DNA of 23,946 nt from IMG/VR virus record IMGVR_UViG_2617270941_000003, positions 1-23,946 of that record. One strand, written 5' to 3'. Every line of letters starts with the position of its first letter. Position 1 is the stretch's first letter. Both the position numbers and the translations under genes were made by a program. The notes beneath the pieces were generated by a model. It did no database searches, had not been told where the DNA came from, and saw only the letters and a program-made list of their open reading frames with translations. Source of the DNA: a virus (taxonomy: Duplodnaviria; Heunggongvirae; Uroviricota; Caudoviricetes). Positions 1 through 22,710 of the stretch are shown here, in pieces.

Positions 1-88
1 TTATCTTCTGGTATTTAGCTATCCCTCATAAGTTAATTGCCGCTGAGATATCCTAAGCTCTAGCCTCTGAAAATACATTTATATTTCG

Positions 89-121
89 AAGCCCGCGATA
101 TTTTAAGCGGGCTTTTATTTT
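89..121 (+). terminator. Rho-independent terminator-like hairpin just beyond the tfa 3' end
   Basis: Stem AAGCCCGC (89-96), 10-nt loop, GCGGGCTT (107-114), followed by TTATTTT. The T-run is on the plus strand, so it best fits a convergent upstream plus-strand gene; it may act weakly in both directions. Confidence 0.5.
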
Positions 122-701
122 AAACTTCAGGTATTACAGGCCACTCAATATCAGGTGCAGTTGATGTATCAACACGGTTCAGCAACACCCGATACTTTTT
201 CCAGGCTTCCAGCAATGAGGTTTCTTCCTCCGTTGCGATTTCCAGATCTACAGCATCCTGAAGTGGCGCAATATGCTCACTGGCTACCTGCATCAGGTTG
301 TTTTTTGTTTCTTCCGCCTCCCGGATCCGGAACAGTTTTTCTGCTTCTGCATCTTTCACCCAGGCTGTGCCGTTCCACTTCTGAAACTCCCCTTCCGGGG
401 ATAACCAGGTGACATTTTCCGGTAATAAGCCGAGTTCAGAAATAAATAACGCGTCGCCGGAAGCCACGTCATAAACCGTTTTACCCCGATGGTCTTCAAC
501 AAGATGCCACGATGCCTCATCACTGTTGAAAACAGCCACGAAGCCTGCCGGAATATCTGGCGGTGCAATATCGGTACTGTTTGCTGGCAGACCTGTATGA
601 GGCGGAATATATGCGTCACCTTCACCAATAAATTCATTAGTTCCGGCCAGCAGATTATAAATTTTTATGGTCCGTGGTTGTTCACTCATTCTGAATGCCA
701 T
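120..701 (-). CDS. tfa: Tail fibre assembly protein (Tfa family chaperone)
   Basis: 193-aa ORF whose translation ([24 protein letters not shown]...) matches the TfaR/TfaQ/TfaE family as I recall it. Its ATG overlaps the upstream tail-fibre stop by one base (TAATG). Confidence 0.85.
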
Positions 702-2125
702 TATGCAAGCCTCACAATATAGTTAAATGCGATGTTTTTGACGGTGTTTTCCGCGTTACCAGCAGCGTTAATGGTGATGGTGTGTCCATGTGAACCAATC
801 GCAACGGAGTGCGTATGAGCACCAATACCGACAGTATGTGCATGTGCGCCTGCGCTTGCAGCAGTGCCGGACAGCGAGTGGGTATGAGCACCATCTGATG
901 ATGTCTTCCCTGCATTACGAGTCTGGCCAGTACCGCTTGTTGTGCTCATAATCCCCGCGCTTAGATTTGAAATCGCGGTATAACCATTAGGGAAAATGCT
1001 CGTGTTCGTGCCACCAAATGCACCGGAACTCTTGTGTTGGTGCGCACCGGCACTATTTGCAGTCCCGCTAATACTATGGGTATGCGCCCCGGTGTTATTC
1101 GTGGATTTGGTTCCGTAATCAAACGACGATGTGTTTTTCGTCCCCAAATCCGTACTGGATGCGCTGGCGCTGTGGGTGTGCGATTTAATGCCGTCCTGTT
1201 CCTGAGACAATACGGCACGACCACTGGCGGGTTTGCCCTTAATCGTCCAGCCACGCATATCAGGGATCACGCCTGACGGATAAGCGGCTGCAAGTTTCGG
1301 GTATGCAGATTTGTCAAAAGTCTGCCCCTGCATCAGGGCATAGCCAGACGGAACGGTATCTGATGGCCACGGGATTGGTGCGCCAGGCGGATAAAACTGC
1401 TCTGATGGCGTATAGAGTGAATAAACTGTACCGTCCGTTAACCCTTCCGGCTTATTAGCAGAATATGCTGGTGACGTATGAATCGTCACGCTGGCATTAC
1501 TGGTATAATCCCATTGAATATTTACACCAGTCGCATAATTTCCGATTGCAACGTAAATATCGTAAGTATCACCAGATGTATTGACCCAGGCAAAATTTGT
1601 AAACCCTGTCGATGTGCGCTGCCATAAAGCACCAGTAATCCCCTTCGGATTACCATTACCTGCACGCAAAACAAGTTCAGATATACCTGCCTGTTGAGGT
1701 GACCCCACGTTAAATCCCGCGCCACCAATCAACGTAATTGAAACAACAGAACTCGCCTGTGGCATGGTTACCGTTGCTAATTTGAACCAACCAGCACCAC
1801 CGCTGAATGACATTGTTGTTGAGTTAAGCGTACCAATATCTTTCGGCGTCAGTGTTATATCCGCTGAAAGCGCCTTACCATTCACCTTACGGGCAGAAGG
1901 TAGACTATCTTTAATTTCTCGCTCATACAGCCTTGCTTTATGAATAAAACGCACCCCAGCAGCCAGTGCTACTGGGGACGGAGGTGTTGCTGGTAAAGTT
2001 AGGTATTGGATCAATGAGTGAGTCAACATAATATTAAACTCACAATTATAAATCAGCCATATATTAGGAGCGCCAAAAAAAACCTGAAAACAATATAATA
2101 ACAGGATAAATTTCAAGGCGACCAA
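701..2125 (-). pseudogene. stf: Side tail fibre gene, C-terminal fragment only (5'-truncated stf remnant)
   Basis: The C-terminal part has repeated GAHTHS/GAHQH/GAHAH motifs and ends [11 protein letters not shown], typical of lambdoid Stf C-termini. The N-terminal ~50 codons of the ORF are AT-rich, non-homologous sequence that overlaps the trkG 3' end, so the gene has lost its 5' portion. Confidence 0.7.
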
Positions 2126-3521
2126 GAATCATAGCTATGCACATTAAACATTTTGCAATGTCATTAAGCACTCCGAATGACGATGCAGTAGCCCCAAAAC
2201 CTAATCCCATATTATTAATACATGCAGCCACTGTTGCAAATGATGTAAGAAAATCATATCCCATACCATTTAACACCAGTATAAAAAACACCGTGAAGAG
2301 AGTATAAAGAAAAAAGAAACTCCATACAGACCTCATTACACGATCTGTAACTATCTTCCCTCCTACATTTACACTCAACAACGCTCTGGGATGAGAAAGC
2401 TGATTTATCTCGTGTTTGCTTTGTTTGAAAAGTATAAGAAATCGAAGTGACTTAATTCCACCACAAGTTGAACCTATACATCCCCCAAAGAAACTTGACA
2501 ACAGCAAAAACACTATCGTGTGCGTGGGCCAACTTGCATAATCCTGCGTAGCTAAACCATTATCAGTGAGCATGGAGCTGGCAAGAAAAAACGAATGAAT
2601 AAAACTTCCATGCAAGTCATACATACCTATATGCCAGACCTGGAAAGAGGTAACAATGATCACCCCTAAGGCTATTAACAGAAAGAAACGAAGTTCAATA
2701 TCTCTGATTAAAGGTTTTATCGTTTTCCTGCTAATAACAATATACCAAAGAGTGAAGTTGAAAGCCGATAGCAGGGAAAAAGAACCAGCCACCAGCTCAA
2801 CCAAATAGTTATTAAAATATCCGATACTCTCGCTATGAGTTGAGAAACCACCAAGCGAAACTGTGGAAATCCCGTGACAAATAGCATCAAACAAAGGCAT
2901 TCCTGCAAGTCTATAACAGACAATACAAGCAATACCTAATAAAGAATAAGTTATCCACAGTGTCCGTGACGTATCGGCCAGGCGGGGAGTGAGTTTGTCA
3001 TCCTTAAATGGCCCCGGCATTTCTGACTGATAAAGCTTTGCACCACCAATACCCAATAATGGCAATACAGCAACCGCCAGAACAATAACTCCTAAACCAC
3101 CTATAAAATTTAACTGTGACCGATAGTACAAATATGCCCGAGGTAATGAACTAACATCATCAATTACAGTTGCTCCTGTTGTTGTTATTCCAGAAACCCC
3201 TTCAAACAGAGCATCAATGAACGTTAAATTAAGTTCTGAGTCAATCCATAAAGGGAATGCACTAATAACAGAAAACAAAATCCAAAACATTACAATTATA
3301 ATAAACCCATCACGGGTACGTAATTGAATGCCAGATTTCTTAGTTGTATACCACGCTCCGCCACCAATGCAAAAAAATATAACGAAAGTTATAAAGAAAA
3401 CGAACAGGCTTTTTTCTTTATAAAACAATGCTACAACCATTGGTGGCAACATTGAAAGACTATAGAGCCAAACCAGGAACCCACACATATGAGTAACAAC
3501 TCTTACATGAGATGTATTCAT
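2064..3521 (-). CDS. trkG: Trk-type potassium uptake membrane protein (TrkG/TrkH family)
   Basis: Multi-pass membrane protein. Starting at the internal Met (MNTSHVRVV...) gives 485 aa, the length I recall for Rac-encoded TrkG, and the sequence reads like TrkG/TrkH throughout. Confidence 0.85.
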
Positions 3522-3658
3522 ATCTAAATATTCTTTCAATTATAACCACCTTGCTGCAATATTATGATTATACTGTATAAAATTTAACTCCTCTTAGATC
3601 TTACTTCACTGTTCCTTATGAAACAATCATCAAAATGAATCATATTGTAGTTAAGATT

Positions 3659-4123
3659 TTACTTTAAACACTGCTCGGTTATGTATTGCTGAGCACCTTC
3701 AAGTTGGGCCTGCATCATTACCAGTCGTTCCCGGAGGGTGAAATAATCCCGTTCAGCGGTGTCTGCCAGTCGGGGGGAGGCTGCATTATCCACGCCGGAG
3801 GCGGTGGTGGCTTCACGCACTGACTGACAGACTGCTTTGATGTGCAACCGACGACGACCAGCGGCAACATCATCACGCAGAGCATCATTTTCAGCTTTCG
3901 CATCAGCTAACTCCTTCGTGTATTTTGCATCGAGCGCAGCAACATCACGCTGACGCATCTGCATGTCAGTAATTGCCGCGTTCGCCAGCTTCAGTTCTCT
4001 GGCATTTTTGTCGCGCTGTTCTTTGTAGGCGATGGCGTTATCACGGTAATGATTAACACCCCATGACAGGCAGACGACGATGCAGATAACCAGAGCGGAG
4101 ATAATCGCGGTTACTCTGCTCAT
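3659..4123 (-). CDS. Rz: Rz i-spanin (inner-membrane lysis protein)
   Basis: 154 aa with an N-terminal TM segment and coiled-coil body, near-identical to lambda Rz as recalled. Its start overlaps the endolysin stop. Confidence 0.85.
3718..3903 (-). CDS. Rz1: Rz1 o-spanin lipoprotein, embedded in Rz in another frame
   Basis: 61-aa ORF wholly inside Rz with a lipobox (LVVVGC) and a proline-rich body ([15 protein letters not shown]), the classic embedded Rz1 architecture. Confidence 0.8.
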
Positions 4124-4596
4124 ACCTCAATCTCTCTGACCGTTCCGCCAGCTTCTTTGAATTTTGCAATCAGACTGTCAGCCTTATGCTCGAACTGACC
4201 ATAACCAGCGCCCGGCAGTGAAGCCCATATATTGCTGCAACGGTCGATAGCCTGACGGATATCACCGCGATCAATCATCGGCAAAGCGCCACGCTCTTTA
4301 ATCTGCTGCAGCGCTACAGCATCCTGACTTTCTGGAGAAAAATCTTTCAGGCCAAGTTGCTTGCGGTAGGCATCCCACCAGCGTGAAAGAAGCTGGTAAC
4401 GTCCAGCGGCTGTTGATTTGAGTTTCGGATTTAGCGTGACAAGTTTGCGGGGGTGATCGGAGTAATCAGTGAACAGTTCGCCACCGACAATAACATCATA
4501 ACCGTGATTTCTGGTTTTCTGCCGTCCGTTATCTGTTCCTTCTGACCATGCCACCATATCAAGGAAAGCTTTACGCTGGGAATTAAGTGTCTGCAT
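4120..4596 (-). CDS. R: Endolysin, lambda R-type lytic transglycosylase
   Basis: 158 aa ([51 protein letters not shown]...), nearly identical to lambda R over its full length as recalled. AAGGAG Shine-Dalgarno 6 nt upstream. Confidence 0.9.
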
Positions 4597-4624
4597 TAAT
4601 TACTCCTTATGGGCACCGAACTTG

Positions 4625-4939
4625 TTACCGATGACCCTCATTGCCGCACCACGAATAGCAAACACCAATCAGCCCCACCCCACCACCAATGGCAACAGAA
4701 AGTGATTTAGGCCATCCGACATACTCAAGCGCGGATGCAAAGGTCAGCGTCAGAGCACCACAAAGCAGAATCTCAAGCGTTTTTCGTTTCCAGCCGCCGC
4801 CACCGCCAAAATAGGCAATGCGCAAACCAGCCATAATAATTGACATAACCACTGCACCCAGCGGCGTATCTCCACGCCACCAACTTTGTAAGAGTTCCAG
4901 TAAGTCAGGCCAGGAATGAGGGGCATTGTGCATTTTCAT
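4625..4939 (-). CDS. S: Putative class I holin with a lambda-S-like dual start (Met-Lys-Met)
   Basis: Small protein with three hydrophobic segments directly upstream of R-Rz-Rz1. The ORF opens at GTG (4948) followed by in-frame ATG-AAA-ATG (4939 and 4933), behind a GGAGGTGA Shine-Dalgarno. The sequence itself does not resemble lambda S and lacks a strongly charged C-terminal tail, so the call rests mainly on position and topology. Confidence 0.6.
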   Translation of the reverse strand: MKMHNAPHSWPDLLELLQSWWRGDTPLGAVVMSIIMAGLRIAYFGGGGGWKRKTLEILLCGALTLTFASALEYVGWPKSLSVAIGGGVGLIGVCYSWCGNEGHR

Positions 4940-5035
4940 AAGCCTCACCTCCGAGAGTTCGGATGGTGCTAAGTGTAAGATTCAGGCTCTCAGGCTTGCT
5001 AACAAGAAGTCGAGGATGTTTCCGGAGCCTAACAA

Positions 5036-5062
5036 CGAAAAAGCCCCGGGACATGCCGGGGC
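5036..5062 (-). terminator. Rho-independent terminator (minus strand) between the membrane-protein moron and the holin
   Basis: Minus-strand GC-rich hairpin (plus-strand GCCCCGG 5043-5049 pairing with CCGGGGC 5056-5062) followed on the minus strand by TTTTT. Confidence 0.5.
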
Positions 5063-5156
5063 CAGATGGAGTGCCAGATTAAGCTTCTGGCGGTATATAC
5101 TCGTGTTTGATATCGTTAAATCGCCAAAAGTAACAATTCAAACAAAGAGGATTTTT

Positions 5157-5318
5157 ATGTCTGAAAAAAACAAACCACAAGGTGAAAATAAACCTCAGCA
5201 ACCCGTGGCACCAAAACCAACTCCAACACAAAGTACTACAGACTTTGCTACACGTCGTGTTTTTGTTGGAGATTCTGCCGACTCAGTCATTGAACATATA
5301 AAAAAACAGCCGAGATAA
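5157..5318 (+). CDS. Hypothetical small hydrophilic protein (53 aa, Pro/Gln-rich N-terminus)
   Basis: ATG at 5157 preceded by AGAGGA 7 nt upstream. Translation MSEKNKPQGENKPQQPVAPKPTPTQSTTDFATRRVFVGDSADSVIEHIKKQPR. Its 3' end overlaps the 3' end of the convergent minus-strand gene by 32 nt. The longer ORF in the track (from 4926) overlaps the holin start and is probably not the real N-terminus. Confidence 0.35.
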   Translation: MSEKNKPQGENKPQQPVAPKPTPTQSTTDFATRRVFVGDSADSVIEHIKKQPR

Positions 5319-5856
5319 ACATCGCCGCTACCGGAGCAAGGATGGTATACATCCTTGCTTTATCGAGACTCGTGCGGATTTTCTCATTTTCCAACAGTAA
5401 CTCTCTTGCTGTATCACTCAAGTCAACAAGGCGATACCTTCGTATAAGCGGCAATAACTTATCAGGTCCTAAATATCCTGCATCAGCGAATATTTTAAAG
5501 CTCGAGGGCTCCATATCCTTATATTTTTCATGATATAGATGATCAGGAGGGGCATTGATCAGGCCCCTAACCTTCACAGATAAACCAGTACATACCAAGT
5601 AAATGGCGCACCATGTCCATAGTAATGTAAATGTGGTAATTCCGGCGGTGAGAAAATCGAAATTAGTTTTCTGTGTCAGCAATAAAAAAGATGAACCAAT
5701 TCCAACAATCTGAATGTTCAGAAGTTTGTATCCATTCTCAACATTGGTTTTGTTAGAAAGATGAATCTCTCGTATCGTCTCTTCCCCTTGTTTTTCAAGA
5801 TAATCGACGAGCTCATCATCTACTCCTAAAAAATAATCTTTAGGTAGTTCTCTCAT
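5287..5856 (-). CDS. Hypothetical membrane protein (189 aa, acidic N-terminal domain, three predicted TM segments); moron between the Q region and the lysis cassette
   Basis: ATG with GGAGGTGA Shine-Dalgarno 4 nt upstream. AT-rich codon usage unlike neighbouring phage genes. No family recognised from the sequence. Confidence 0.6.
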   Translation of the reverse strand: MRELPKDYFLGVDDELVDYLEKQGEETIREIHLSNKTNVENGYKLLNIQIVGIGSSFLLLTQKTNFDFLTAGITTFTLLWTWCAIYLVCTGLSVKVRGLINAPPDHLYHEKYKDMEPSSFKIFADAGYLGPDKLLPLIRRYRLVDLSDTARELLLENEKIRTSLDKARMYTILAPVAAMFISAVFLYVQ

Positions 5857-5963
5857 CTCACCTCCACATCCTGTACTGAAAACAATTTTACCAGAATGTC
5901 TCGATTCTAGGTATTCCGCCAGGAATCGCGCTCCAGAAATGAAACATCAGGTTCGCCAGTACC

Positions 5964-5994
5964 AGAAACAACAAAACCCGCTCAATGGCGGGTT
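5964..5994 (-). terminator. Putative tR'-like terminator downstream of the Q-like gene
   Basis: Minus-strand hairpin (plus-strand AACCCGC 5975-5981 and GCGGGTT 5988-5994) followed on the minus strand by TTTTGTTGTTT. Sits where lambdoid phages place tR', between Q and the first late gene. Confidence 0.5.
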
Positions 5995-6077
5995 CTGGTA
6001 AAGTTCATGCGCTTGGTTCGCCTCGCGATACAGCTTTGCGAAGCATACCGGAATTGAAGCAGTTTATGCGTAAAAAA

Positions 6078-6620
6078 TCAAGCTATTTTTTGAGCAAATG
6101 ATTCTCGCATGGGAATATATAGGGCATACTCAGCAACAGCCAACCAATTAGCAATTCGCTTTTCGCATGTGCTAAAACACCACTCAGGATGTGCATCATT
6201 TAGCAATTCAGCCATTTTGCGCTTAGTCATCCCCCGTCCTTCATACCGTTGCCGGAGGACACTAATCAATCCAGGATGCTCTGCCAGCACCTCACTTATG
6301 ACTCTATCAATACATAACGCCTCTGCATCAGTACAATGCGCCAGCCAGGTCTTTTGCTTGCCATTGATCATCTCTCGCAAAAACGCTTCCAGCTCAGGTT
6401 TCTCTATTCCCGCTTTTTTCATCCTGCGCAGGGCTTCATTGACGGCTGTTTTCGTCAATTTTTTGGATGCCAGCAACTGGTTAAACATATTTCCCGTCTT
6501 ACCGCCGCCAATATACGACCAGCGCCCCCACATGCGCAGTTTTCCCTGAATCCAGACACTTTCCAGCGTGGTGAGACGAAGGTGTTCCCCGCTTTTGCCT
6601 GTATTTGTTGGGTAAATCAT
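6078..6620 (-). CDS. Putative late-gene antiterminator (Q-like); family assignment uncertain
   Basis: 180 aa from the internal ATG at 6620 (MIYPTNTGKSG...), with a GGAGAAAGGAAGG ribosome-binding region, translationally coupled to the upstream gene by an ATGA overlap. It sits immediately upstream of a terminator and the lysis genes. The Q-like assignment is from position and overall resemblance, not a verified alignment. Confidence 0.5.
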   Translation of the reverse strand: MIYPTNTGKSGEHLRLTTLESVWIQGKLRMWGRWSYIGGGKTGNMFNQLLASKKLTKTAVNEALRRMKKAGIEKPELEAFLREMINGKQKTWLAHCTDAEALCIDRVISEVLAEHPGLISVLRQRYEGRGMTKRKMAELLNDAHPEWCFSTCEKRIANWLAVAEYALYIPMRESFAQKIA

Positions 6621-6907
6621 AAATAACCTTCCTTTCTCCAGATTTCTTGTGTGCGAAAAACACCTTCTGCATGCATCAGGCGTAATTCTTCTTTGGTGTA
6701 ATCGCTGGTTTTTACCCGCCCGTCGATTAAATCGTGGCATGAGCTACAGGCAATCGCTGCCTGCATATCGTGTGGTTTTGTCGCTGTTCCGCACGTCCCC
6801 GCCAGCCTGTAATGCGCCAGCACAGAGGTTTCGGGATTGTGATTGCAGTAGCCAGGGATTCTGATCTGGCACATCTGGCCTTTAGCCGCTTTACGTAAAT
6901 TCACCAT
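6617..6907 (-). CDS. YbcO-like prophage protein (DUF1364 family, Cys-rich putative metal-binding nuclease)
   Basis: 96 aa (MVNLRKAAKGQMCQIRIPGYCNHNPETSVLAHYRLAGTCGTATKP...IACSSCHDLIDGR), closely resembling DLP12 YbcO as recalled. Confidence 0.7.
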   Translation of the reverse strand: MVNLRKAAKGQMCQIRIPGYCNHNPETSVLAHYRLAGTCGTATKPHDMQAAIACSSCHDLIDGRVKTSDYTKEELRLMHAEGVFRTQEIWRKEGYL

Positions 6908-7506
6908 TACGCAAACTCCAGTAGTTGTGCGGCCACATTTTCAACTTCCTCCTGAGAGGAGAATTTACGGAACAGAATCCAGTTCCACAGCACATTCAGA
7001 ACAGATTTATAAACCTGCTGAAACTCGGTTTCGTCCATATTCGCAAACGCGATGGATTTCGCCCTGCGCCCACGGCTACCGTCCGGATAAATATGCTCGG
7101 TGTAAAATCCGGCCTGAATGGTTACCCACTCGCGGAAAGCCTCAAACGACTTTAGCAATGCCGTATCCCGAGTTCTGCGTGTCGCAACTGTATTTAGATA
7201 TTGCTCTGCGGCATCACTCAGGGCTGGTGTGTGTTCCCGACCAACTGATTCGCACAAGTAATCCACGAAACCAGACAGCAGTTCTCGTTCGCGAGGTGTG
7301 ATCGCCCCACCGACCGGAGTCCAGTAATCGAATCCCAGTTGCAGGAGTTTGAAAAAACGCTTGTGGAATGCGTAGTTACGCACACGCTTAAAGTCTGCGT
7401 GTATCCACTCACCTATTTTGATTTGATGCAGAAAATCGCAACTCTCCGGCGTCGCCGGGAGAAGTAAACCAGAAGAGGTTTGTTTGACCAGTTGTATATG
7501 CGCCAT
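6907..7506 (-). CDS. nin-region phage protein, possibly DUF1367 family
   Basis: 199-aa ORF directly upstream of, and coupled to, the YbcO-like gene, an arrangement common in lambdoid nin regions. Family assignment is from memory and is tentative. Confidence 0.5.
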   Translation of the reverse strand: MAHIQLVKQTSSGLLLPATPESCDFLHQIKIGEWIHADFKRVRNYAFHKRFFKLLQLGFDYWTPVGGAITPRERELLSGFVDYLCESVGREHTPALSDAAEQYLNTVATRRTRDTALLKSFEAFREWVTIQAGFYTEHIYPDGSRGRRAKSIAFANMDETEFQQVYKSVLNVLWNWILFRKFSSQEEVENVAAQLLEFA

Positions 7507-7786
7507 TTCTCAATCTCTCGATGGCGCAGCGCAGCAGATGCCAGTTGTTCAGGCTGACGAATAAAGTATAAATAAACTGGCTATGGTGTAAAGCCCCACA
7601 TAGCATGAACAAACACTACATATCAAATAGCTGGTACAAGGATAGAAATACGACATTTATTATTAAAAACGATTAGATAAATTACATTTTAATGTTATGC
7701 AAAAGTTCTTTTTTATCATAACATTTCAATAAAAGCATTACAGATGCAATCATCCCGTCATCATCAATTATTTAAGGTGGTTAAAC

Positions 7787-7873
7787 ATGGAAAATAACAA
7801 GTTCGCACATCTCGCTCCTTTTTTATCCGTAATCCTTTTCGCTTGTTGTTTTATATGGGCATTATTTTTATAA
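7787..7873 (+). CDS. Candidate small hydrophobic protein (28 aa): MENNKFAHLAPFLSVILFACCFIWALFL
   Basis: ATG at 7787 with AAGGTGG 6 nt upstream, a single predicted TM helix and a Cys-Cys pair. Lies in an otherwise ORF-free AT-rich stretch. Confidence 0.4.
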   Translation: MENNKFAHLAPFLSVILFACCFIWALFL

Positions 7874-7947
7874 AGTAGCCGCATGATAAGTTGCTGGAAT
7901 CATATTTCCCACTCAAGTCATTAACATTTGATAAGATATATCTAAAA

Positions 7948-8006
7948 GGACACCTTTACATTATTTATGTGTATATAATTTATTTATATACACAGTAAAG
8001 GTATCC
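7948..8006. repeat. Nested imperfect palindrome in AT-rich non-coding DNA
   Basis: Outer arms GGACACCTTTAC (7948-7959) and GTAAAGGTATCC (7995-8006), 11 of 12 complementary. Inner arms TGTGTATATA (7968-7977) and TATATACACA (7985-7994), a perfect 10-bp inverted repeat with a 7-bp spacer. Confidence 0.5.
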
Positions 8007-8264
8007 TGGGAAAATATTTATCGTTAAAAAATACATCATAAATAATTAAGCTGAAATTTCAGAACACAACTAATACACACAATAAGGTTCAGTAACAATA
8101 ATCTATGTGGACTACATCGAGATTTTTTGATTAAACTTTAATAACTTATTCCTAACACACAGAATGCATAAACTAAAAGTAAAACAAATAGTTATACGAA
8201 AAACAACCATATTTATTATATCTTCTCCTCTAATCAACATATCAATTATGTGTTTCATAACAGC

Positions 8265-8312
8265 TTGACATAACCCTCAAAAACACGCATTTATAATGCA
8301 TGTTTTTGAGGG
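8265..8312 (+). promoter_or_regulatory. Putative promoter with an overlapping 17-bp inverted-repeat operator upstream of the YeaR-like gene
   Basis: Consensus TTGACA (8265-8270) and TATAAT (8292-8297), but with a long 21-bp spacer. Inverted repeat CCCTCAAAAACACGCAT (8274-8290) / ATGCATGTTTTTGAGGG (8296-8312), one mismatch, centred on the -10 element. Confidence 0.45.
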
Positions 8313-8319
8313 GGTGGTT

Positions 8320-8658
8320 ATGACACACAAGAGAATTCCTAAAGATTGGGTAATCAAACGCTCAACTCCGTTCTTCACAAAAGAGAACGTACCTTCAGCG
8401 TTATTAACACATCATAATACAGCAGCAGGTGTTTTTGGGCAGTTGTGCGTAATGGAAGGCACTGTAACATATTATGGTTTTACTGATGAGAATGCTACTG
8501 AACCGGAGATAAAAGTAGTCATTAATGCTGGCGCTTTTGCAACAAGCCCACCACAATACTGGCACCGTGTTGAACTAAGCGATGATGCTCAGTTTAATAT
8601 TAACTTTTGGGTCGCTCCAGACTTCTCGGGCGAAAAAGTCTATAGCACCAAAAAATAG
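8320..8658 (+). CDS. YeaR-like protein (DUF1971, the domain also found at the TehB N-terminus)
   Basis: 112 aa from the ATG at 8320 (GAGGGGG Shine-Dalgarno). Motifs RSTPFF, CVMEGTVTYYGFTDE, EPEIKVVINAGAFATSPPQYWHRVE and FNINFWVAPD parallel E. coli YeaR as I recall it. Confidence 0.65.
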   Translation: MTHKRIPKDWVIKRSTPFFTKENVPSALLTHHNTAAGVFGQLCVMEGTVTYYGFTDENATEPEIKVVINAGAFATSPPQYWHRVELSDDAQFNINFWVAPDFSGEKVYSTKK

Positions 8659-8687
8659 ATGATCATATTAAAAATGCTTTAACAGTC

Positions 8688-8725
8688 AGACCCGGCAGGG
8701 CTATCCCCGACGGGTCTCATTTTTG
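8688..8725 (+). terminator. Rho-independent terminator of the YeaR-like gene
   Basis: AGACCCG (8688-8694), loop, CGGGTCT (8711-8717), then CATTTTTGT. Confidence 0.6.
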
Positions 8726-9420
8726 TAAATATATTGGTTCTACATTGACAGGAGACTTCAACCATAAGAAGTAATCTGAATACTTGAGCAATAAATTTAC
8801 TTAAGATTAATGAGCGCACCTTGCCGGACAAAGATAAACCAAGGTAACACCTTTTTTCTAGCCAGTATGTAATCAATCAGAAAGCCGCTCCATAAGAACA
8901 ACAGCAAGACAATAAATTGCCATTACAGCCGCAATAGCCAGCGCACATTTGAGAACCAGCACGACAACCCCCTGTATTAGACGCACACCAGTCCTGATAA
9001 ATATGAGGCTGTCTCGTCAGTGATTCAATACAACTATTGGGTATAGTTTCTGTGATTTTATTCTGTAGAAATGGAACACAACAACCAGTCACCACCAGCA
9101 CTTCTTTAAATACGCCAAGTCCGACGCAAGCTAACCTTCTAGTCCGCTTTGAGCGAAAAGCGGACAGGAACATTCTGGTTAATAGATATCAATGCTAACA
9201 AAAAAGCTCCCGATGGAGATTTTGAAACCGCTTCCACATAATGAAATAAAAGGATTTATTTCTGATCATGCCCACACATTGACCACGTCGAAGTAAGTAG
9301 CTCCGCTTCGCGGAGTTACTTAAGATAATTTCTATGTAGTTCCATGCTATGATTTAATTTTCAAGTTACAAAATCTAAATCTACAAATGTCCATTTGGGT
9401 GTAAAATTACACAATCCTAT

Positions 9421-11746
<2,326 letters not shown>

Positions 11747-12047
11747 TTTAATTACCTTATATATCCAAACTCTTAATTTTCTCTTTTTTACCATAGGATT
11801 AATCCAAAATAAAGACCTTGTTGACTAAACCCTCATGTACAAAATGCACACTTACTCAAAAGGATCTGGAGGCAATCTCGACCTCCATGATTTAGTTCCT
11901 AGGGATAAGCAGAAATCTAGCACTGGATTAAAATTTAAAAATAATAATCAATAGGTTATAATGGTTTTTATTCGCATCCATGGGATCTGCTGCTGCCCGC
12001 ATGATGTTGGATGCGACGGCGCTGGCACGACCTCACCCGGTGAAACG

Positions 12048-12492
12048 ATGAAACGCGAAAGGGTTGTTCTTCGGGAAGGTGCAGTTGGACTTTCAATCGA
12101 TGACGTTGCAAAAGAGGCTGGCGTCAGTAAGGCAACGGTAATGTACGATCATAAGTCAAAGCAAGATTTGCTCAGCGATCTCATCAGTCGCCTTATGCCA
12201 GTAGAGGAGGAACGTGTTCAGCAAGCGATAGCGGAAAGTAATAATACCCCACATCCCGCACTCTATGGGCGAATTATTTCAGCCAGTAATGCTCTCAGTC
12301 ATACTGAGAGCAGTAGTGCTGGCGGTCAGCGAATCGTTAACTAACGATACGAATATCAGGGACACCATGCGTTCCTGCACAAACAAAGATTTGGATGAGA
12401 TAAAAAGAGGACCAAAACCAGACGTTGCCGTCCTGGTATATTTGGCGTTATCTGGTATCTACTGCCAAGAATTTTTTGATTTTTACAAATGA
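12048..12492 (+). pseudogene. TetR-family transcriptional regulator, apparently frameshifted, divergent from the three-gene operon
   Basis: The first ORF (frame of 11961..12344) carries a TetR-type helix-turn-helix (LSIDDVAKEAGVSKATVMYDHKSKQDLLSDLI) from an internal ATG at 12048. A second overlapping ORF (12265..12492) in a different frame could be the remaining C-terminal domain. Confidence 0.4.
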
Positions 12493-12765
12493 TCTCCTGG
12501 CGAGCGAGATAAAATTATCGAAGGCATTCGCTGTTTGTATGAATCATACCCTTACAAGTCTGAATAAATAATGTCTCCGGGAATGACATTTCATGTGCGA
12601 CTAATTCGCGATATTCCTATACGTAAAGGTCCGCTTTTGGCACAAAGTGGACAACCACGCTAGCTCTACCCTGTGCCACAAAATGTCAATTTGCATCTGA
12701 ACTAATGCACTTTAATCTCGTCACTTCAATAAATACCGAACATCCCCCTGATAAAACGACAATAT

Positions 12766-13143
12766 TCACTGCATAACTTCACTCTTCAGGCACTCGCGAC
12801 AGATTATGTTCAGACGCCTGTCGTAACGGCGTATTTCTCCGTCTGGTAATGACCAGATAAGGTCAGGATCAACCACAACCGGTTTCTTCACCTTTGTCCT
12901 TGATAGTTTTTTGCGGGCGTTTTGCCAGTCTTTACGCGCCTGCTCAGACGGGAATAATCCGTAGCCTGAATTGTAAACATCACCACTGGCGACTAGTTCT
13001 CTGGCGAGAGTGCTTATGTAATACCTTGATGCACCGGTTTTAGCCTCCAGAGCCCGTAACGTCTCGCGACCGCTCAGAGGTACAAGTTCAACAACCTGTC
13101 CTTTAATTTTTTCTCGCTCTTCTGGTGTAAATACTTTTGCCAT
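12766..13143 (-). CDS. Hypothetical phage protein (125 aa)
   Basis: ATG at 13143 with GGAGG 5 nt upstream; the track's longer ORF begins at an upstream TTG. Follows the preceding gene after a 15-nt gap. No family recognised. Confidence 0.5.
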   Translation of the reverse strand: MAKVFTPEEREKIKGQVVELVPLSGRETLRALEAKTGASRYYISTLARELVASGDVYNSGYGLFPSEQARKDWQNARKKLSRTKVKKPVVVDPDLIWSLPDGEIRRYDRRLNIICRECLKSEVMQ

Positions 13144-13158
13144 AGGTGCCTCCGGCAA

Positions 13159-13920
13159 TCACTTTTCCGATGCAACATGGCGGGAAGAATCAGTAATCTG
13201 TCGTACAATATCCCTGTGCTTGTTCAACTCACGCAGCGCGGCGCAGACACGCTCCCACTTCTGGACATGATTTTTCGCCCGACGCAGTTCGCGGTTTGCC
13301 ATATGCAGTGATGGTAAAACCAGGTCATCCGCTCGCGTTTCAGTAAACGATGGCAGCGACTGCACAATGTCCGCCACAGTTTCTGTTTTAATATCTTCCT
13401 GTGTTGCAGCCTCCTGTACTGGTAACGCAACACCTGCGGTCTGAGGAAAGGCCTTACCATCAGTTTCCGCTACCGATGCTGCTTTCGGCTCTGCTGGTAA
13501 ATTATCGCCCGGTATGCAGTAACGAAATTTACCGCCCTGATTTACGCGAATCAGACGACCTTTGCTGATTGCCATTGCCAGCGTTGAAGCCACTTTGCGT
13601 GATGTGGTACCAAACAATGTAGCCAGCTCATCAGCCGTTTGTGGTCCTCGTTGTTCAATCGTCGCGGTTAAATCGCACTCTGAGATTTTCGCTACTGTTG
13701 CTGTGGTGATTTCTTCCGGCAGTTCTGCCTGCGCTGGCTGTTCCTGCTGAACATTGTTATCAGCCACACGCCAGGTGTACGCGCTTTTATCAACAAAACC
13801 AGCCTTTTTCAGTTCCCATAGTTCGTTCAGCACTTCTTCACGACTGATATCAAGTCGCGCAGCAAGTTCTATGGATGTGGCTTTTCCCATTGCTTTCAGT
13901 GCGTCAAAAACAGTCTCCAT
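13159..13920 (-). CDS. Hypothetical phage protein with two winged-helix-like segments (about 254 aa)
   Basis: ATG at 13920 with GGGAGA 8 nt upstream (the track ORF extends to 13971 and would overlap the DnaC-like gene). Segments [30 protein letters not shown] and [33 protein letters not shown] look like DNA-binding winged helices. Confidence 0.5.
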
Positions 13921-14695: not shown

Positions 14696-15553
14696 TTACC
14701 CCCTGAAGCCTGGCGGGATCGCACTATCCGGTAACGAGACGGTGTTAACCTGTCGGAGTAACGTCTCAGGTCGAACACCTTTCGGCGCGAACAAGCCCTG
14801 GTATTCATTGGCGATGCTGTGTCGAATCACCTGCTCAGGTGAAAAACCCTGCTGGCGGAATTTTTCCAGCTCCCGTATCGCCCCGTTAGCGCCCTGCTCC
14901 GTTCGAATCGGTTTTCGCAATGCCTGGCGAAATTCAACCCACTCACGCCAAAGCGAGACAGAAATCCAGTTCGGCAAAGTAATATCCAGAGGGTCAAACT
15001 TTTTGACACCTCGATTCCCCCGGGGGGGATTTAGGGGGGGATCTGTTTTTAGATCTTTATCTGTATCTTTATTAGTTGCCTTTGTGTTGACATCATGTTC
15101 AAACACCACTTCAACATCTGTTTGAACACCTGTTAAATTTCTCTCTTGTTTTGTTTGAACATCTGCTTCCTTTCTGCTTCTTCTGGCCTGAACAGATGCT
15201 TTTCCTGCGGCTGATTTTTTGGTTAATTTTTCCCTGACTGATGCCAGATCTTCCTCAATCCGAAGATGCACCCATTCCTCGCCGTTATCGCAAAAAAACT
15301 CCTGCAAGGATGGTTCAACATCAGCCCATCGCTCGTTAGTCAGACGGGCAATTTTTGCCAGCCTGTTTTTAGGTATTGGCTTTCCTGTTTGCCAGTAATT
15401 GAACATCAGCAACAAATACGCACCATGCTCCTCTGCTGACAAATGCATGGTGTCAGCCAGGTAATCAGCTATGTACAGTTGCATGTATGGTAATGCGGCC
15501 ATAATTGCCCCGTATGATGCTGCCCGGTGGCTTAGAATAAGCACAAACAGCAT
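14696..15553 (-). CDS. ydaU: YdaU-like replication protein (O-like initiator, DUF1376-type)
   Basis: 285-aa ORF immediately upstream of the DnaC-like gene, matching the YdaU length I recall. Contains internal iteron-like repeats and homopolymer tracts. The start is uncertain; an alternative ATG lies at 15502. Confidence 0.7.
   Translation of the reverse strand: MLFVLILSHRAASYGAIMAALPYMQLYIADYLADTMHLSAEEHGAYLLLMFNYWQTGKPIPKNRLAKIARLTNERWADVEPSLQEFFCDNGEEWVHLRIEEDLASVREKLTKKSAAGKASVQARRSRKEADVQTKQERNLTGVQTDVEVVFEHDVNTKATNKDTDKDLKTDPPLNPPRGNRGVKKFDPLDITLPNWISVSLWREWVEFRQALRKPIRTEQGANGAIRELEKFRQQGFSPEQVIRHSIANEYQGLFAPKGVRPETLLRQVNTVSLPDSAIPPGFRG
15096..15161. repeat. Iteron-like 10-bp repeats inside the O-like gene (candidate replication origin)
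   Basis: TGTTCAAACA at 15096-15105 (inverted) and TGTTTGAACA at 15119-15128 and 15152-15161 (direct), each flanked by CATCTG. Lambda's origin likewise sits as iterons inside the O coding sequence. Confidence 0.4.
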
Positions 15554-17798: not shown

Positions 17799-20700
17799 AT
17801 GAGCACAAAACCACTCTTCCTATTACGGAAAGCGAAAAAATCATCCGGTGAACCTGACGTCGTCCTGTGGGCAAGCGACGATTTTGAATCGACCTGTGCC
17901 ACTCTGGACTACCTGATCGTTAAGTCAGGTAAAAAACTGAGCAGCTATTTTAAAGCTGTTGCCACGAATTTTCCTGTCGTTAATGACCTGCCCGCTGAAG
18001 GTGAGATCGATTTTACCTGGAGTGAACGCTACCAACTCAGCAAAGACTCCATGACATGGGAACTAAAACCGGGAGCAGCACCAGACAACGCTCACTATCA
18101 AGGCAATACCAACGTCAACGGCGAAGACATGACTGAGATTGAGGAGAATATGCTACTCCCAATTTCTGGCCAGGAACTGCCCATTCGCTGGCTTGCTCAA
18201 CACGGCAGCGAAAAACCGGTAACGCATGTTTCACGCGACGGACTCCAGGCATTACACATTGCTCGGGCTGAAGAACTACCGGCTGTTACTGCCCTGGCTG
18301 TTTCCCACAAAACCAGCCTGCTCGACCCGCTGGAAATTCGCGATCTCCACAAACTGGTTCGTGACACTGACAAAGTTTTCCCTAATCCTGGTAATTCAAA
18401 CCTGGGACTGATAACTGCTTTTTTCGAAGCATACCTGAACGCTGACTACACCGATCGAGGACTGCTGACAAAAGAGTGGATGAAGGGTAATCGTGTTTCA
18501 CACATCACTCGCACGGCTTCCGGTGCTAATGCTGGCGGCGGAAACCTCACCGATCGCGGCGAAGGTTTCGTACACGATCTGACGTCACTGGCGCGCGACG
18601 TAGCCACTGGCGTACTGGCCCGTTCAATGGATCTGGACATCTATAACCTTCATCCGGCACACGCTAAACGCATTGAGGAAATTATCGCTGAAAATAAACC
18701 GCCCTTTTCTGTTTTCCGCGACAAATTCATCACCATGCCTGGCGGGCTGGATTATTCCCGCGCCATCGTGGTTGCGTCCGTAAAAGAAGCACCAATTGGG
18801 ATCGAGGTCATCCCCGCGCACGTCACTGAATATCTGAACAAAGTACTGACTGAAACCGATCATGCCAACCCTGATCCGGAAATCGTGGATATTGCCTGCG
18901 GTCGCTCCTCTGCCCCAATGCCGCAGCGTCTAACAGAAGAAGAAAAACAGGATGATGAAGAAAAACCGCAACCATCTTGCGCAATGGCAGATGAACAGGC
19001 AACGGCTGAAACAGTGGAACCGGATGCAACTGAACATCATCAGGACACGCAGCCGCTGGATGCTCAGTCACAGGTAAATTCTGTTGATGCGAAGTATCAG
19101 AAACTGCGGGCAGAACTCCATGAAGCCCGGAAAAACATTCCGCCCAAAAATCCTGTCGATGCAGACAAATTACTGGCTGCCTATCGCGGAGAATTTGTTG
19201 AAGGGATTAGCGACCCGAATGATCCGAAATGGGTTAAGGGGATCCAGACCCGCGATTCTGTGTACCAGCATCAGCCAAAAACGGAACAGAACGACCGAAA
19301 ATCGGAACAAAACGGCCAAAATGCGCGACAAAATGAACCAGAAGCGCAACAGGAACCGGAAAAAGTCTGCGCCGCCTGCGGTCAGACCGGCGGCAGTAAC
19401 TGCCCTGACTGTGGCGCGGTGATGGGCGACGCAACATACCAGGAAACATTCGATGAAGAGAATCAGGTTGAAGCTAAGGAAAATGATCCGGAGGAAATGG
19501 AAGGCGCTGAACATCAGCACAAGGAGAACGCTGGCAACCATCCGCATCACGATTGCAGTGATGAAACTGGTGAAGCGTCAGCTCATGTAGCAACTGAAAT
19601 CATGTGGCCATCATATTTCGAGCCTGGCCGCTATGAAAACCTCCCGAGCGAGGTTTATCACTCCGCCAACGGAATAAGCAGCACAATGCTGAAGGATGCC
19701 CGCATCAGTCTGATGTATTACCACGGGCGGCACATTGCCAGGACTATTCCGAACGAGGAAAGTGATGCATTGCTGCGTGGGCGGATCATTCACAGCTATG
19801 TTCTGGAAACGGATAAATTCGCTGATGAATATGCCATTCCGGTACCGGTTCCTGAATATGTGGTTACTACTTCTAACGAACTGATCACCATCATTAAAAA
19901 ACACAATGCCAGTCTGCCATCACTGATGACACCAGAGCAGATGAAAGAGTGGATCGAAAGCTACAACAGCACTCTTATACAGCCACTGTCGGTAAGCGCT
20001 GGGGCCGAAGAAACAGGCATCCTTTACGGTTCGCTTCCGGAGGAATTTCGGCGTATTCCTGAGGGGGAAAAACACAAAGCATCAGCAATGAAAGCCTGTA
20101 TTAAAGAATACAACGCAAGCCTCCCTCCTCTGCTGAAAACCAGTGGAACACGGGAGCAGCTTCTGGAGCAAATTGAAACTGTAGATCCAGAACTGGCAAA
20201 AAAAGAACGTGCTAAATCGTTGCCTTACAACATCAGTGGCACAAAAGAGCAATTAACCGAAATCGCCCGGAAAATTCGCCCGAAACTGGTAACACTGGAG
20301 GATTGGCAAAAACGCCAGCAAGAAGAAAATGCAGGAAAAACGTTTATCAGTCCAGATATGTATGAACAGGCAAAAAATATTCACGCGGCACTGCAAAACA
20401 ATACTGACGCGGCAAGACTACTCAACCACCCGGATCGCAAATCTGAAATCAGCTATTTCGGGTTTGATGAAGAAACCGGGCTGGAAATCAGGGTCCGCCC
20501 TGATATCGAAATCCGACTGCCATACGAAAGCATCTGCGCCGACGTGAAGTCAGTCAGCCTCGGTTATGTGCGGCAAGAACGACTAAAAGATCGCTTACAC
20601 CGTGAAATTATTGAACGTGATTATCACCTGAGCGCCGCAATGTACTGCGATGTGGCAAACCTGGACAAATTTTTCTGGATCTTCGTCAACAAAGATGCTG

Positions 20701-20891
20701 GCTATCACTGGGTGGCTGTCGTGGAAGCCTCGCAGGAACTCCTGGAACTTGGTCGACAGGAATATCGCCGGACGCTACGACAGATAAACGAAGCGCTGGA
20801 GACAAACAACTGGCCAGCACCGATTACCGAAAGTTATACCGACGAATTAAACGACTTTGATCTTCGTCGTCTTGAAGCACTGAGCATCTGA
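17799..20891 (+). CDS. recE: Exodeoxyribonuclease VIII (RecE-like), 1030 aa, with a divergent C-terminal PD-(D/E)XK nuclease domain
   Basis: The N-terminal ~600 aa ([44 protein letters not shown]...) follow K-12 RecE closely as recalled, including the CxxC...CPDC zinc ribbon. The C-terminal domain ([11 protein letters not shown]...RPDIEIR...ADVKSVS) is RecE/YqaJ-like but clearly different from K-12 and longer. Confidence 0.85.
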
Positions 20892-20902
20892 GGAAGGACA
20901 CA

Positions 20903-21955
20903 ATGAACGAATTAACTCAACAAGAAAATATTAACTCTAATGTTGCGGTTTTCAGCCCTCAGTCTCTGACTGCAATTCAGACGTTTTCTCAGGTAATGGC
21001 TTCCGGCATGGCTACTGTACCGGAACACCTCCGAGGAAATCCATCAGACTGCATGGCCATCACCATGCAGGCGATGCAGTGGCAAATGAACCCTTACGCA
21101 GTAGCTCAGAAAACTTTCGTTGTGAATGGTGTGCTCGGATATGAAGCGCAACTGGTTAATGCCGTAATCAGTACTCGTGGGCCGCTAACCGGGCGTATTG
21201 AATATGACTGGTTCGGGCCGTGGGAAAAAATTATCGGGAAATTTGAAATCAGGAAGAACGACAAAGGGAAAGAATATCGTGTACCTGGCTGGAAGCTGGC
21301 CGATGAAAACGGGATTGGAGTTCGCGTCCAGGCAACACTACGCGGAGAGAGCAAACCACGCGTACTGGAGTTACTTCTGGCGCAGGCCAGAACACGTAAC
21401 TCAACGTTATGGGCCGATGATCCTCGTCAGCAGCTTGCCTATCTGGCACTCAAACGCTGGGCGCGCCTTTATTGCCCTGAAGTGATTCTTGGAGTGTACA
21501 CCCGGGACGAACTGGACGAACCACAGGAAAAAATCATTAATCCGGTTCAGGAACATAAAAACACATCCGCCTGCCGTGCGGAACGTGAAACAACAATTAT
21601 TGAGCAGGATGCCGGGGAAAACTGGATCAGTGCTTTCCGTGAACGTATTGAGCAGGCACAAAGCACCGGAGAAACAACAGCACTTCGGCAGGAAGTGGAA
21701 GAGCATAAAAATACACTTGGCGCTCTCTATACGGAACTAAAAGGAAAAGTGGTTCAGCGTCATCACCGTCTCAATGCTATTGCCCGTATTGAGAAGATGA
21801 TAAATGACCTGCCTTCATCAGGTGATCCGGAAGCAGAACAAAAATTTACTGCTCTGGAAAATACGCTGAATACTGCACGACCACATCTGGGAGAATTATA
21901 TGAGGCGTATAAAACGACACTGACAGATATGAAACCAGAATATATCGAACCCTGA
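20903..21955 (+). CDS. Single-strand annealing protein, RecT/Red-beta-like partner of RecE (not the K-12 RecT sequence)
   Basis: 350-aa ORF 11 nt downstream of recE, in the position of recT. No Walker motifs, which argues against a Sak4/RecA-type protein. Family assignment by position and general character only. Confidence 0.55.
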   Translation: MNELTQQENINSNVAVFSPQSLTAIQTFSQVMASGMATVPEHLRGNPSDCMAITMQAMQWQMNPYAVAQKTFVVNGVLGYEAQLVNAVISTRGPLTGRIEYDWFGPWEKIIGKFEIRKNDKGKEYRVPGWKLADENGIGVRVQATLRGESKPRVLELLLAQARTRNSTLWADDPRQQLAYLALKRWARLYCPEVILGVYTRDELDEPQEKIINPVQEHKNTSACRAERETTIIEQDAGENWISAFRERIEQAQSTGETTALRQEVEEHKNTLGALYTELKGKVVQRHHRLNAIARIEKMINDLPSSGDPEAEQKFTALENTLNTARPHLGELYEAYKTTLTDMKPEYIEP

Positions 21956-22018
21956 TATTTACTATGGCGGTGTAGCCTCACCGCCATAACAAAAATTTAT
22001 TATATGAGAGAAAAGACA

Positions 22019-22213
22019 ATGCGGTATGAAAAAGTCAAACCATGTCTATTTTGTGGTTGTCCATCAGTAACGGTGAACGCCATTTCAGGATATTACCGAG
22101 CGAAGTGTAACGGATGCGAATCCCGAACCGGTTATGGTGGAAGTGAAAAAGAAGCACTCGAAAGATGGAATAAACGAACCACTGGAAATAATAATGGAGG
22201 TGTTCATGTATAA
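22019..22213 (+). CDS. ralR: Lar/RalR (restriction alleviation protein and type I toxin DNase)
   Basis: 64 aa from MRYEKVKPCLFCGCPSVTVNAISGYYRAKCNGCESRTGYGGSEKEALERWNKRTTGNNNGGVHV, near-identical to Rac Lar as recalled. Confidence 0.8.
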   Translation: MRYEKVKPCLFCGCPSVTVNAISGYYRAKCNGCESRTGYGGSEKEALERWNKRTTGNNNGGVHV

Positions 22214-22394
22214 AATTACCGCCACTATTGAAAAGGAAGGTGGCACTCCTACTAACTGGACAAGATATTCAAAATCTAAACTAACGAAATCAGAATGCGA
22301 AAAAATGCTCTCAGGTAAAAAAGAAGCAGGCGTTTCCAGAGAGCAGAAAGTAAAACTGATAAATTTTAATTGCGAGAAACTTCAGTCCTCGTGA
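22206..22394 (+). CDS. ydaC: YdaC-like small protein
   Basis: 62 aa from MYKITATIEKEGGTPTNWTRYSK..., with GGAGGTG Shine-Dalgarno. Its start overlaps the lar stop (ATGTATAA). An upstream in-frame ATG at 22194 is also possible. Confidence 0.6.
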   Translation: MYKITATIEKEGGTPTNWTRYSKSKLTKSECEKMLSGKKEAGVSREQKVKLINFNCEKLQSS

Positions 22395-22493
22395 ATTGCA
22401 TTGTATTCAAATTAAAACTTCATAGCTGATTATTAATAATCAACATCGGGCGTCAATTTCAGTCTAACATTGGCGCCTGCCAGAGGTGATGCG

Positions 22494-22709: not shown

Positions 22710-22710
22710 T

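Follow-up and report, generated by a model that had tools for sequence, protein, structure and literature searches.

We assign a probability of about 82% to the reading that the 5′ region of the 474-codon tail-fiber reading frame in this Rac prophage is a scar of prophage decay, left where an illegitimate microhomology join at a TA dinucleotide connected ynaK, at its codon 9, with stf, at its codon 588; the estimate also covers the two-step history and the functional reading proposed below. The gene ynaK is the first late gene past the trkG moron and its terminator, and everything from there to the stf remnant (stf′) is absent. The window, that is the whole stretch of DNA analysed, is 23,946 nt long, and its features are given in Table 1.

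The identity of the prophage as Rac is given by its integrase side (window 21,965–23,946 is 97% identical to K-12 xisR/intR), by its site (ttcA, dbpA, and zntB come after intR in contig JNQL01000007.1), and by its early region (recET, kilR, sieB, and ydaU/V, in blocks 96–100% identical to K-12 Rac). Read from right to left, the minus strand carries the holin, lysozyme, and Rz genes, trkG, the 474-codon ORF, and tfa. The open frame of trkG spans 2064–3539 and the real gene 2064–3521; its product has zero amino acid differences from K-12 TrkG (BLASTP). Rac gene content is variable, and trkG is among the most conserved Rac genes (PMC5700373). The idea that trkG is a mobile cassette with a fixed end was rejected, as its upstream side is always linked to Rz.

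Table 1. Features at the trkG to tfa end of the window (positions in the window; strand as given)
Feature	Start	End	Strand	Description and basis
Spacer, Mn-catalase gene (outside the window) to tfa	1	119	plus	Hairpin and T-tract on the plus strand
tfa	120	701	minus	193 aa, intact; Pfam Caudo_TAP 1.8e-44
stf′	701	1902	minus	Authentic 3′ 1,202 nt; residues 589–987 of the 987-aa Stf plus stop
stf-frame ORF	701	2125	minus	474 aa, TTG start
ynaK′ mini-ORF	1882	1926	minus	ATG at 1926 and AAGG Shine-Dalgarno kept; 8 ynaK codons + 2 nt, then out-of-frame stf
In-frame GTG	1883	1885	minus	Overlaps the mini-ORF stop (GTGA); NCBI start of a 394-aa "tail fiber protein"
Junction	1901	1902		TA dinucleotide common to both parents; three-way alignment of the window, K-12 ynaK, and full-length stf
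trkG intrinsic terminator	1944	1977	minus	10-bp stem with 7 GC pairs, then UGCGUUUUAU; terminator scan and RNA fold
Overlap of trkG ORF and stf-frame ORF	2064	2125	minus	62 nt; mechanical 5′ extension into the trkG 3′ end
trkG	2064	3521	minus	485 aa plus stop, intact; Pfam TrkH 5e-145

Alignment to K-12 Rac, a check proposed in the preliminary description, placed the junction at 1901/1902. On one side of it, window 1901–4123 is 99.9% identical to K-12 Rac (1901–4103 as the BLAST block) and covers trkG with its 163-nt downstream flank and the opening 26 nt of ynaK. On the other side, window 139–1902 consists of the 3′ part of stf and tfa, and within it 139–904 and 1056–1384 match K-12 tfaR and the 3′ end of stfR (BLAST). 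The stf-side homology stops at 1902 in more than 1000 genomes, and the ynaK-side homology begins at 1901 in every match listed for that side. On the coding strand, with a slash at the breakpoint, K-12 ynaK reads ...AAAGATAGTCTA/TCGCCC and full-length stf reads ...GGTCGGGTA/CCTTCTGCC; the window reads ...AAAGATAGTCTACCTTCTGCC, so that codon 9 of ynaK, at a distance of 163 nt from the intact trkG, runs into codon 588 of the 987-codon stf. The truncated ynaK (ynaK′) is left as a mini-ORF of 14 codons with its TGA stop at 1884–1882. A deletion scar in place of the structural module had been expected at 2030–2125, at the trkG stop; the scar is there, and its place is instead within ynaK, about 130 nt outside that interval. 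No IS element or IS end was found at the junction, where ynaK and stf are joined directly, and an IS-mediated deletion was rejected on the same observation at 1901/1902. IS-bearing variants are seen in other loci, with IS1 in one (H3) and IS3 at a distance of 6 nt in another (L026).

The exact junction is known from one draft contig (2 samples). It is present in 0 of 5,426 complete E. coli genomes and in none of the GTDB representative genomes, and was not found in the other IMG/VR contigs searched. We count the single contig and the absence of the junction from the complete genomes against the preferred reading.

The 474-codon frame itself is not a gene with an early start. Its residues 75–474 align at 99% to residues 588–987 of the Stf from the Rac prophage of CFSAN061771 (BLASTP), and residues 1–74 match no Stf. 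The approximate make-up of this leader is the 3′ end of trkG read in another frame (codons 1–21), the trkG 3′ UTR and terminator hairpin (codons 22–66), and out-of-frame ynaK (codons 67–75). The ORF reaches 2125 only because the stf frame happens to meet no stop codon in ynaK′, in the trkG terminator, or in the end of trkG. The 62-nt overlap with trkG (minus-strand ORFs 701–2125 and 2064–3539), which had been noted correctly, is the upstream run of an open frame to the first TTG past a stop and no gene start. The preliminary description called the first ~50 codons AT-rich junk; the AT-richness holds (34–37% GC over 1901–2300 vs about 47–56% in the stf part), and the length does not, the non-Stf leader being 74–75 codons long. 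This low GC belongs to the trkG moron and the DNA beside it. A full-length fiber beginning at 2125 had been named as the case that would overturn the truncation; BLASTP and Pfam show only the C-terminal part, and that candidate was rejected on the absence of an N-terminal domain and on the unrelated residues 1–74. The terminator hairpin occupies 1977–1954 with the U-tract next to it, and the same sequence occurs in K-12.

What is left of the tail-fiber genes is, as had been claimed, only the C-terminus of Stf (399 residues by BLASTP and Pfam) with an intact Tfa. The stf′ DNA is 99.9% identical to stf of E. coli 55989, and Tfa is 95% identical to K-12 TfaR, its start overlapping the stf stop. 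Pfam finds Collar and Phage_fiber only in the ORF, and the N-terminal prophage tail-fiber domain is absent from it; judged from this missing domain, the remnant would be unable to build a virion-attached fiber. Annotators place the start of stf′ at the GTG in Table 1 or, in the case of PGAP, at the ATG at 1813 (370 aa). An exact protein look-up found the 394-aa and 370-aa versions, and the 474-, 442-, 417-, and 354-aa versions are absent from the collection. Expression of stf′ appears doubtful. A sequence scan from the trkG terminator to stf′ gave no promoter-like site, none of the in-frame stf′ starts has a properly spaced Shine-Dalgarno, and the terminator and the missing Shine-Dalgarno argue against expression. 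If lambda is a guide, Q-modified transcription of the late genes could continue from the intact lysis operon past the trkG terminator. Transcription of stf′ would then probably come only from such antiterminated late transcription, and translation only from the fortuitous GTG, coupled to the ynaK′ mini-ORF.

The extent of the loss can be measured on the near-complete Rac prophage of CFSAN061771 (NZ_CP042896.1; locus L009), which lies in the same orientation as the window. It holds both parental sequences in one colinear element, in the order trkG, ynaK, a TAGT-type glycosyltransferase gene, terS, terL, portal, head, tail, J, lom, stf (987 aa), tfaR, and pinR, with ynaK 99.9% and the 3′ part of stf 98% identical to the window. 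Unlike the window, it has 24.2 kb between the breakpoints and pinR beside tfaR. Missing from the window are 24,204 bp (L009 2665–26868), comprising the rest of ynaK, the TAGT-type glycosyltransferase gene, the terminase, portal, head, and tail genes, J, lom, and the 5′ 60% of stf.

K-12 Rac (intR...recET...racR...rzpR-trkG-ynaK-ydaY-ynaA-lomR::IS5-stfR-tfaR-pinR) shares with the window the ttcA site, an IntR-type integrase, colinear early genes, an identical TrkG, and a late region downstream of trkG that was eroded by microhomology deletions. Several genes do lie between trkG and stfR in K-12, as stated in the preliminary description (ynaK, ydaY, ynaA, and lomR::IS5). These are themselves remnants of deletions with other endpoints; nt 254 of ynaK, for example, is joined to ydaY. 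The window differs in having no structural-gene fragments, in an stf cut at codon 588, and in the flank of tfa, where K-12 has pinR-uspF and the window prophage, at the ydfJ locus, has a Mn-catalase cargo gene. The window prophage is not simply more reduced than K-12 Rac, as had been proposed: it has intact holin, lysozyme, and Rz genes, and 9.4 kb of it (4104–13,470, most of the lysis and nin region) are absent from K-12 Rac. Many other Rac remnants, K-12 included, carry different ynaK-to-stf deletions with 2–8 nt of microhomology.

In the Mu G/Gin, P1 C/Cin, and e14 P/Pin systems the exchangeable unit is the variable C-terminal part of the fiber with a Tfa-type chaperone, and the retained stf′ and tfa had been seen as such a unit. 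A relative (L014) does have a second, oppositely oriented stf-C/tfa pair beside pinR, in likeness to these systems. The comparison fails for the window, which is without an invertase, inverted crossover repeats, or an alternative cassette. No serine invertase (pin/gin/cin) lies beside tfa, and no recombinase is called within 10 kb on that side in 55989 or JNQL01000007.1. Window 1–2200 has no inverted repeats that bracket the cassette (three 14–20 nt pairs do not bracket it), and a second stf-C/tfa cassette in opposite orientation is absent here. Other site-specific routes to the breakpoints were also rejected or, in the case of a packaging end, judged less likely. A Din invertase (Pin) crossover or quasi-site is contradicted by the lack of pin, and by the ynaK site matching about 6/20 of the hix/gix/cix half-site consensus, which is the chance level in a comparison made by eye against the consensus sequences. 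A secondary att site for a tyrosine recombinase would need identity over a 6–8 bp overlap, and 2 nt are shared. Restriction-type 5′-TA ends or the TA target of an IS630-type element fit poorly, with GTAC present at two sites only and CTAG at none. A cos or pac end as a fixed breakpoint is disfavored by terS lying 1.9 kb away and by the terminase, which is of the Terminase_6N/6C kind with a DUF4055 portal and which we take, from what is known of these families, to be of the headful type with no precise cut.

The two arms of the junction appear to come from different loci. Window 1–1902 differs at 2 positions (99.9% identity) from a lambdoid prophage that E. coli 55989 carries at its ydfJ (Qin) locus, and among 5,426 complete genomes no other reaches ≥99%. 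Window 1–330 is 100% identical to 55989, where the manganese catalase CDS ends immediately before the base matching window position 1; in that genome this cargo gene adjoins tfa with no pinR there, and Rac is absent from ttcA. The draft contig JNQL01000007.1 (L142; GCA_000704125.1) is 100% identical over window 1–11,885 and gives the order dcp...ydfJ - KGG - DUF892 x2 - Mn catalase - tfa - stf′ / ynaK′ - trkG...intR - ttcA - dbpA - zntB. The ydfJ and ttcA loci are head-to-head in this contig and co-oriented in K-12 and 55989; therefore at least one terminus-region inversion must be part of the history. A simple deletion within one prophage would fit the flanks, which are colinear in the CFSAN061771 Rac, yet the stf′-tfa arm belongs to the ydfJ locus. 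A very close relative, the L141 type, has an identical IntR protein and only 4 mismatches over the 11 kb of flank in common; it is 100% identical to window 1–1902, and its stf endpoint, the same as that of the window, is joined to DNA upstream of dicB in a non-inverted arrangement. This join was present in 4/4 representative places shown, of 23 contigs with the linked exonuclease allele. The shared, non-inverted stf endpoint fits neither simple deletion nor chance comfortably, and we count it against the preferred reading. A mosaic crossover within stf′, suggested by the two SNPs relative to 55989 (1814 and 1847), was rejected on the finding that most alleles and the L141 relative carry the window bases.

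We consider the most likely route to be two steps, in which Rac and a Qin-site lambdoid prophage would have recombined homologously at their inverted tail regions, with inversion of the terminus region as the result, and a ynaK-to-stf deletion, after or before the inversion, would have taken out the structural genes. As in prophage-mediated terminus inversions of E. coli, two oppositely oriented lambdoid prophages flanking the terminus appear to have swapped arms; here, in difference from those, one of two junctions is seen and the join is of 2 nt rather than homologous. The junction could instead be one breakpoint of a one-step illegitimate inversion of ~200 kb of the terminus, between ynaK of Rac and stf of the Qin-site prophage or the dicB/stf′ junction of the L141 type. 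The head-to-head loci, the near identity of window 1–1902 to the 55989 and L141-type copies, and the stf endpoint common to the very close L141-type relative all speak for this possibility, which we regard as the less likely course. It would need two simultaneous microhomology joins, whereas homologous inversion and deletion are two common event types. It also predicts reciprocal sequences, ...AATGGGCGATACCCGACCATTCGC... and ...AATGGGCGATATCCGGCGTTAATTG...; GGGCGA-TA-CCCGACCATTCGC would be expected if the inversion took place between intact prophages and GGGCGA-TA-TCCGGCGTTAATTG if it reused the dicB/stf′ junction. No reciprocal junction was found in the 4 representative places shown, which stand for 23 contigs with the linked exonuclease allele, a set that the genome of the window may lie outside, and the absence of the window junction from IMG/VR also weighs against a single step. 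That the junction is an assembly chimera of a short-read draft genome would explain its restriction to one contig, but we consider this very improbable: an overlap of 2 nt cannot cause a false join during assembly, the contig runs on without a break for over 100 kb to either side, and analogous junctions at the same site occur in the closed genome ET565 and in many independent contigs.

Both breakpoints are found again, exact to the nucleotide, in unrelated strains, unlike what a purely random illegitimate event predicts, and we count this too against the preferred reading. The ynaK codon-9 site has at least five partners. In the closed genome ET565 the same ynaK endpoint is joined to a different partner at L009 15303, and three further partners were found in metagenome and IMG/VR contigs by means of the ynaK-side sequence preceded by any non-wild-type base: stf near L009 1627, an stf repeat of a K-12-like allele, and a point 13 nt beyond the end of an inverted tfa′, counted from its stop codon. 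These five types of junction lie on at least four trkG haplotypes that are common to strains with ynaK intact at this site; the junctions are independent because the haplotypes are shared in this way, and common descent of the five types is ruled out by the four or more haplotypes. The stf codon-588 endpoint has at least three partners, one of them being ynaK nt 277 in two loci (L085/L105) on another haplotype. A candidate fourth partner (L006/JNQH497) arose by unequal crossover between ~133-nt stf repeats and was left out of the count. An unbiased sample of 119 IMG/VR loci, each with its anchor in the 3′ end of trkG, showed 25 different types of junction over 1,052 nt and five partners at a second ynaK site (L009 26474). 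Coincident endpoint pairs number 12 vs about 0.3 expected (P<5e-6, simulation). Junctions with a known partner have 0–8 nt of microhomology, about a third (10/~30) beginning with TA, and TA microhomology is found at 8/9 of the hotspot junctions with a known partner. Three hotspots coincide exactly with the start or end of a short inverted repeat, and in the ynaK repeat (ATGGGCGA/TCGCTCAT) the loop starts at the breakpoint. Our literature search returned only variation in Rac content and nothing on recurrent breakpoints.

These observations raise the possibility of breakage directed by structure or by an enzyme, with both sites fragile or preferred. The candidate processes are stalling of replication at hairpins, cutting of short inverted repeats by SbcCD, or a site-specific nick that leads to template switching at microhomologies. 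For the reused breakpoints, our leading candidate is slippage or breakage directed by hairpins. In E. coli, short-homology, palindrome-associated deletion endpoints were reportedly described in the lacI deletions of Albertini/Farabaugh and in the work of Glickman and Ripley and of Weston-Hafer and Berg. Hairpin cleavage by SbcCD belongs with such endpoints. The likeness lies in microhomologies of 1–8 nt and in endpoints that coincide with the base or the loop edge of a short inverted repeat; in difference from the classical deletions of tens to hundreds of bp in one fork, the events here span 11–36 kb or are inversions, which is long for simple slippage, and one endpoint is reused with many partners. 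The number of partners and haplotypes, the excess of coincident pairs, and the position of the inverted repeats and TA dinucleotides favor directed breakage. Against it, the hairpins fold weakly (-3.6 to -8.6 kcal/mol, z -0.3 to -1.5), L009 26474, one of the hotspots, is off any stem boundary, no common sequence motif was found across hotspots, and no reciprocal ynaK-site event (ynaK body kept and trkG side lost) was seen in 38 IMG/VR loci. We therefore hold directed breakage as a tentative reading only. A further reading takes stf′-tfa as a retained and expressed functional unit, for example a receptor-binding module for prophage exchange or exclusion, translated from the fortuitous GTG. The 399 open codons with an intact, translationally coupled tfa, the overlap of the GTG with the stop codon of a mini-ORF behind a genuine RBS, and the calling of the gene by annotators agree with it, as do the intact Q-like, holin, lysozyme, and Rz genes upstream, by which a late transcript is possible, and the many independent deletions that end within stf. 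In addition, stfR and tfaR are kept in more than 85% of strains (PMC5700373). We nonetheless find this reading improbable: 99.9–100% identity to full-length or sister copies makes the intactness a sign of youth and not of selection, the fiber lacks its N-terminal domain, the gene lies behind the trkG terminator and has neither a promoter-like site nor a properly spaced Shine-Dalgarno, and stf is shorter still in other remnants, down to ~165 nt (L011).

Rac is a highly variable prophage (PMC5700373). The locus itself is ordinary decay of this widespread element; what is unusual is that breakpoints are reused across lineages. Taken alone, the locus is of little consequence; it adds one more route by which Rac is whittled down while the host keeps trkG, and here the decayed prophage is the seam of a terminus-region inversion. 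It also removes a pitfall for annotation, an ORF of 474 codons in which codons 1–74 come from the terminator and from DNA read in the wrong frame. Loss of the structural module of Rac may possibly be non-random, with a structure- or enzyme-directed process channeling prophage domestication, and the same process may also have caused the terminus inversion here, although we consider this the less probable case. If exact breakpoints are indeed reused in independent lineages, prophage domestication would be partly deterministic.

The deletion endpoints downstream of trkG are reused to the exact nucleotide, with different partners and in independent lineages. In the unbiased IMG/VR sample of 119 loci anchored in the trkG 3′ end (25 distinct junction types), there are 12 coincident endpoint pairs versus about 0.3 expected. 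The recurrent sites are given in the table in the coordinates of L009, the near-complete Rac prophage of strain CFSAN061771.

Recurrent deletion endpoints and other features of the Rac prophage, with strand in brackets
Feature	Position	Partners or match
ynaK codon-9 site	window 1901 = L009 26869	at least 5 partners
Second ynaK site	L009 26474	5 partners
Site near ydaY start		3 partners (in K-12, L059 and ET565)
stf codon-588 site	window 1902 = L009 2664	at least 3 partners
Other positions among recurrent endpoints	L009 26618, 26332, 15075-15081	
Regions showing arm arrangement	window 1-1902 and 22711-23946	
Cargo cluster and adjoining genes	window 9421-11794 (-), 11961-12344 (+), 8296-8658 (+)	
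Cargo gene, adenosine deaminase		PADLOC CARF_ADA model PDLC01908, 3e-36 (deaminase region)
Cargo gene, Ham1-type ITPase		
Cargo gene, SIR2_2 protein		ThsA-like, 9e-32

Other Rac variants carry insertion sequences here: an IS3 at about L009 26875 in one IMG/VR variant (L026), 6 nt from the ynaK hotspot, and IS1 and IS5 between trkG and stf in others (H3 and H30). The short trkG-stf interval is thus also struck by IS traffic. One further variant, L014, has a second stf-C/tfa pair in opposite orientation beside pinR (L014 1760-3039), the arrangement that an invertible fibre segment would be expected to show; the deletion in L014 reaches to 13 nt past the stop of the oppositely oriented tfa′.

In intact Rac (L009 25178-26894), ynaK forms the 5′ portion of a far longer open frame, which encodes a ParB_N domain and continues without a stop for at least about 500 nt past the K-12 breakpoint. 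The 87 amino acid YnaK of K-12 is what remains after truncation, and it is joined to ydaY. A gene for a TET-associated glycosyltransferase (TAGT) lies downstream of ynaK in intact Rac and hints at a DNA-modification module.

On the source contig (JNQL01000007.1; loci L142 and L147), the Rac arm on the ttcA side stands head-to-head with an arm of the ydfJ/Qin locus (Mn catalase, ydfJ, ydfI ... dcp), which implies a terminus-region inversion relative to K-12 and strain 55989. No reciprocal junction was found among the four representative places listed, from 23 contigs with the linked exonuclease allele.

K-12 Rac (L001) has a clean 9,367-bp deletion (L001 13201/13202) compared with the window prophage (window 4104-13470). 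The missing stretch begins near codon 7 of Rz and extends to a DUF977-family gene, so the ydaW and rzpR genes of K-12 are the two stumps of the deletion. RecE and RecT (window 17799-21955) are 1,030 and 350 amino acids long in the window prophage versus 866 and 269 in K-12, and K-12 Rac contains nothing that matches window 19575-21965, indicating a different recE-3′/recT allele. Also absent from K-12 Rac is the three-gene cargo cluster. This cluster, whose neighbours are a TehB-like gene and a divergent TetR-like gene, resembles an anti-phage defence operon and is a candidate for one.
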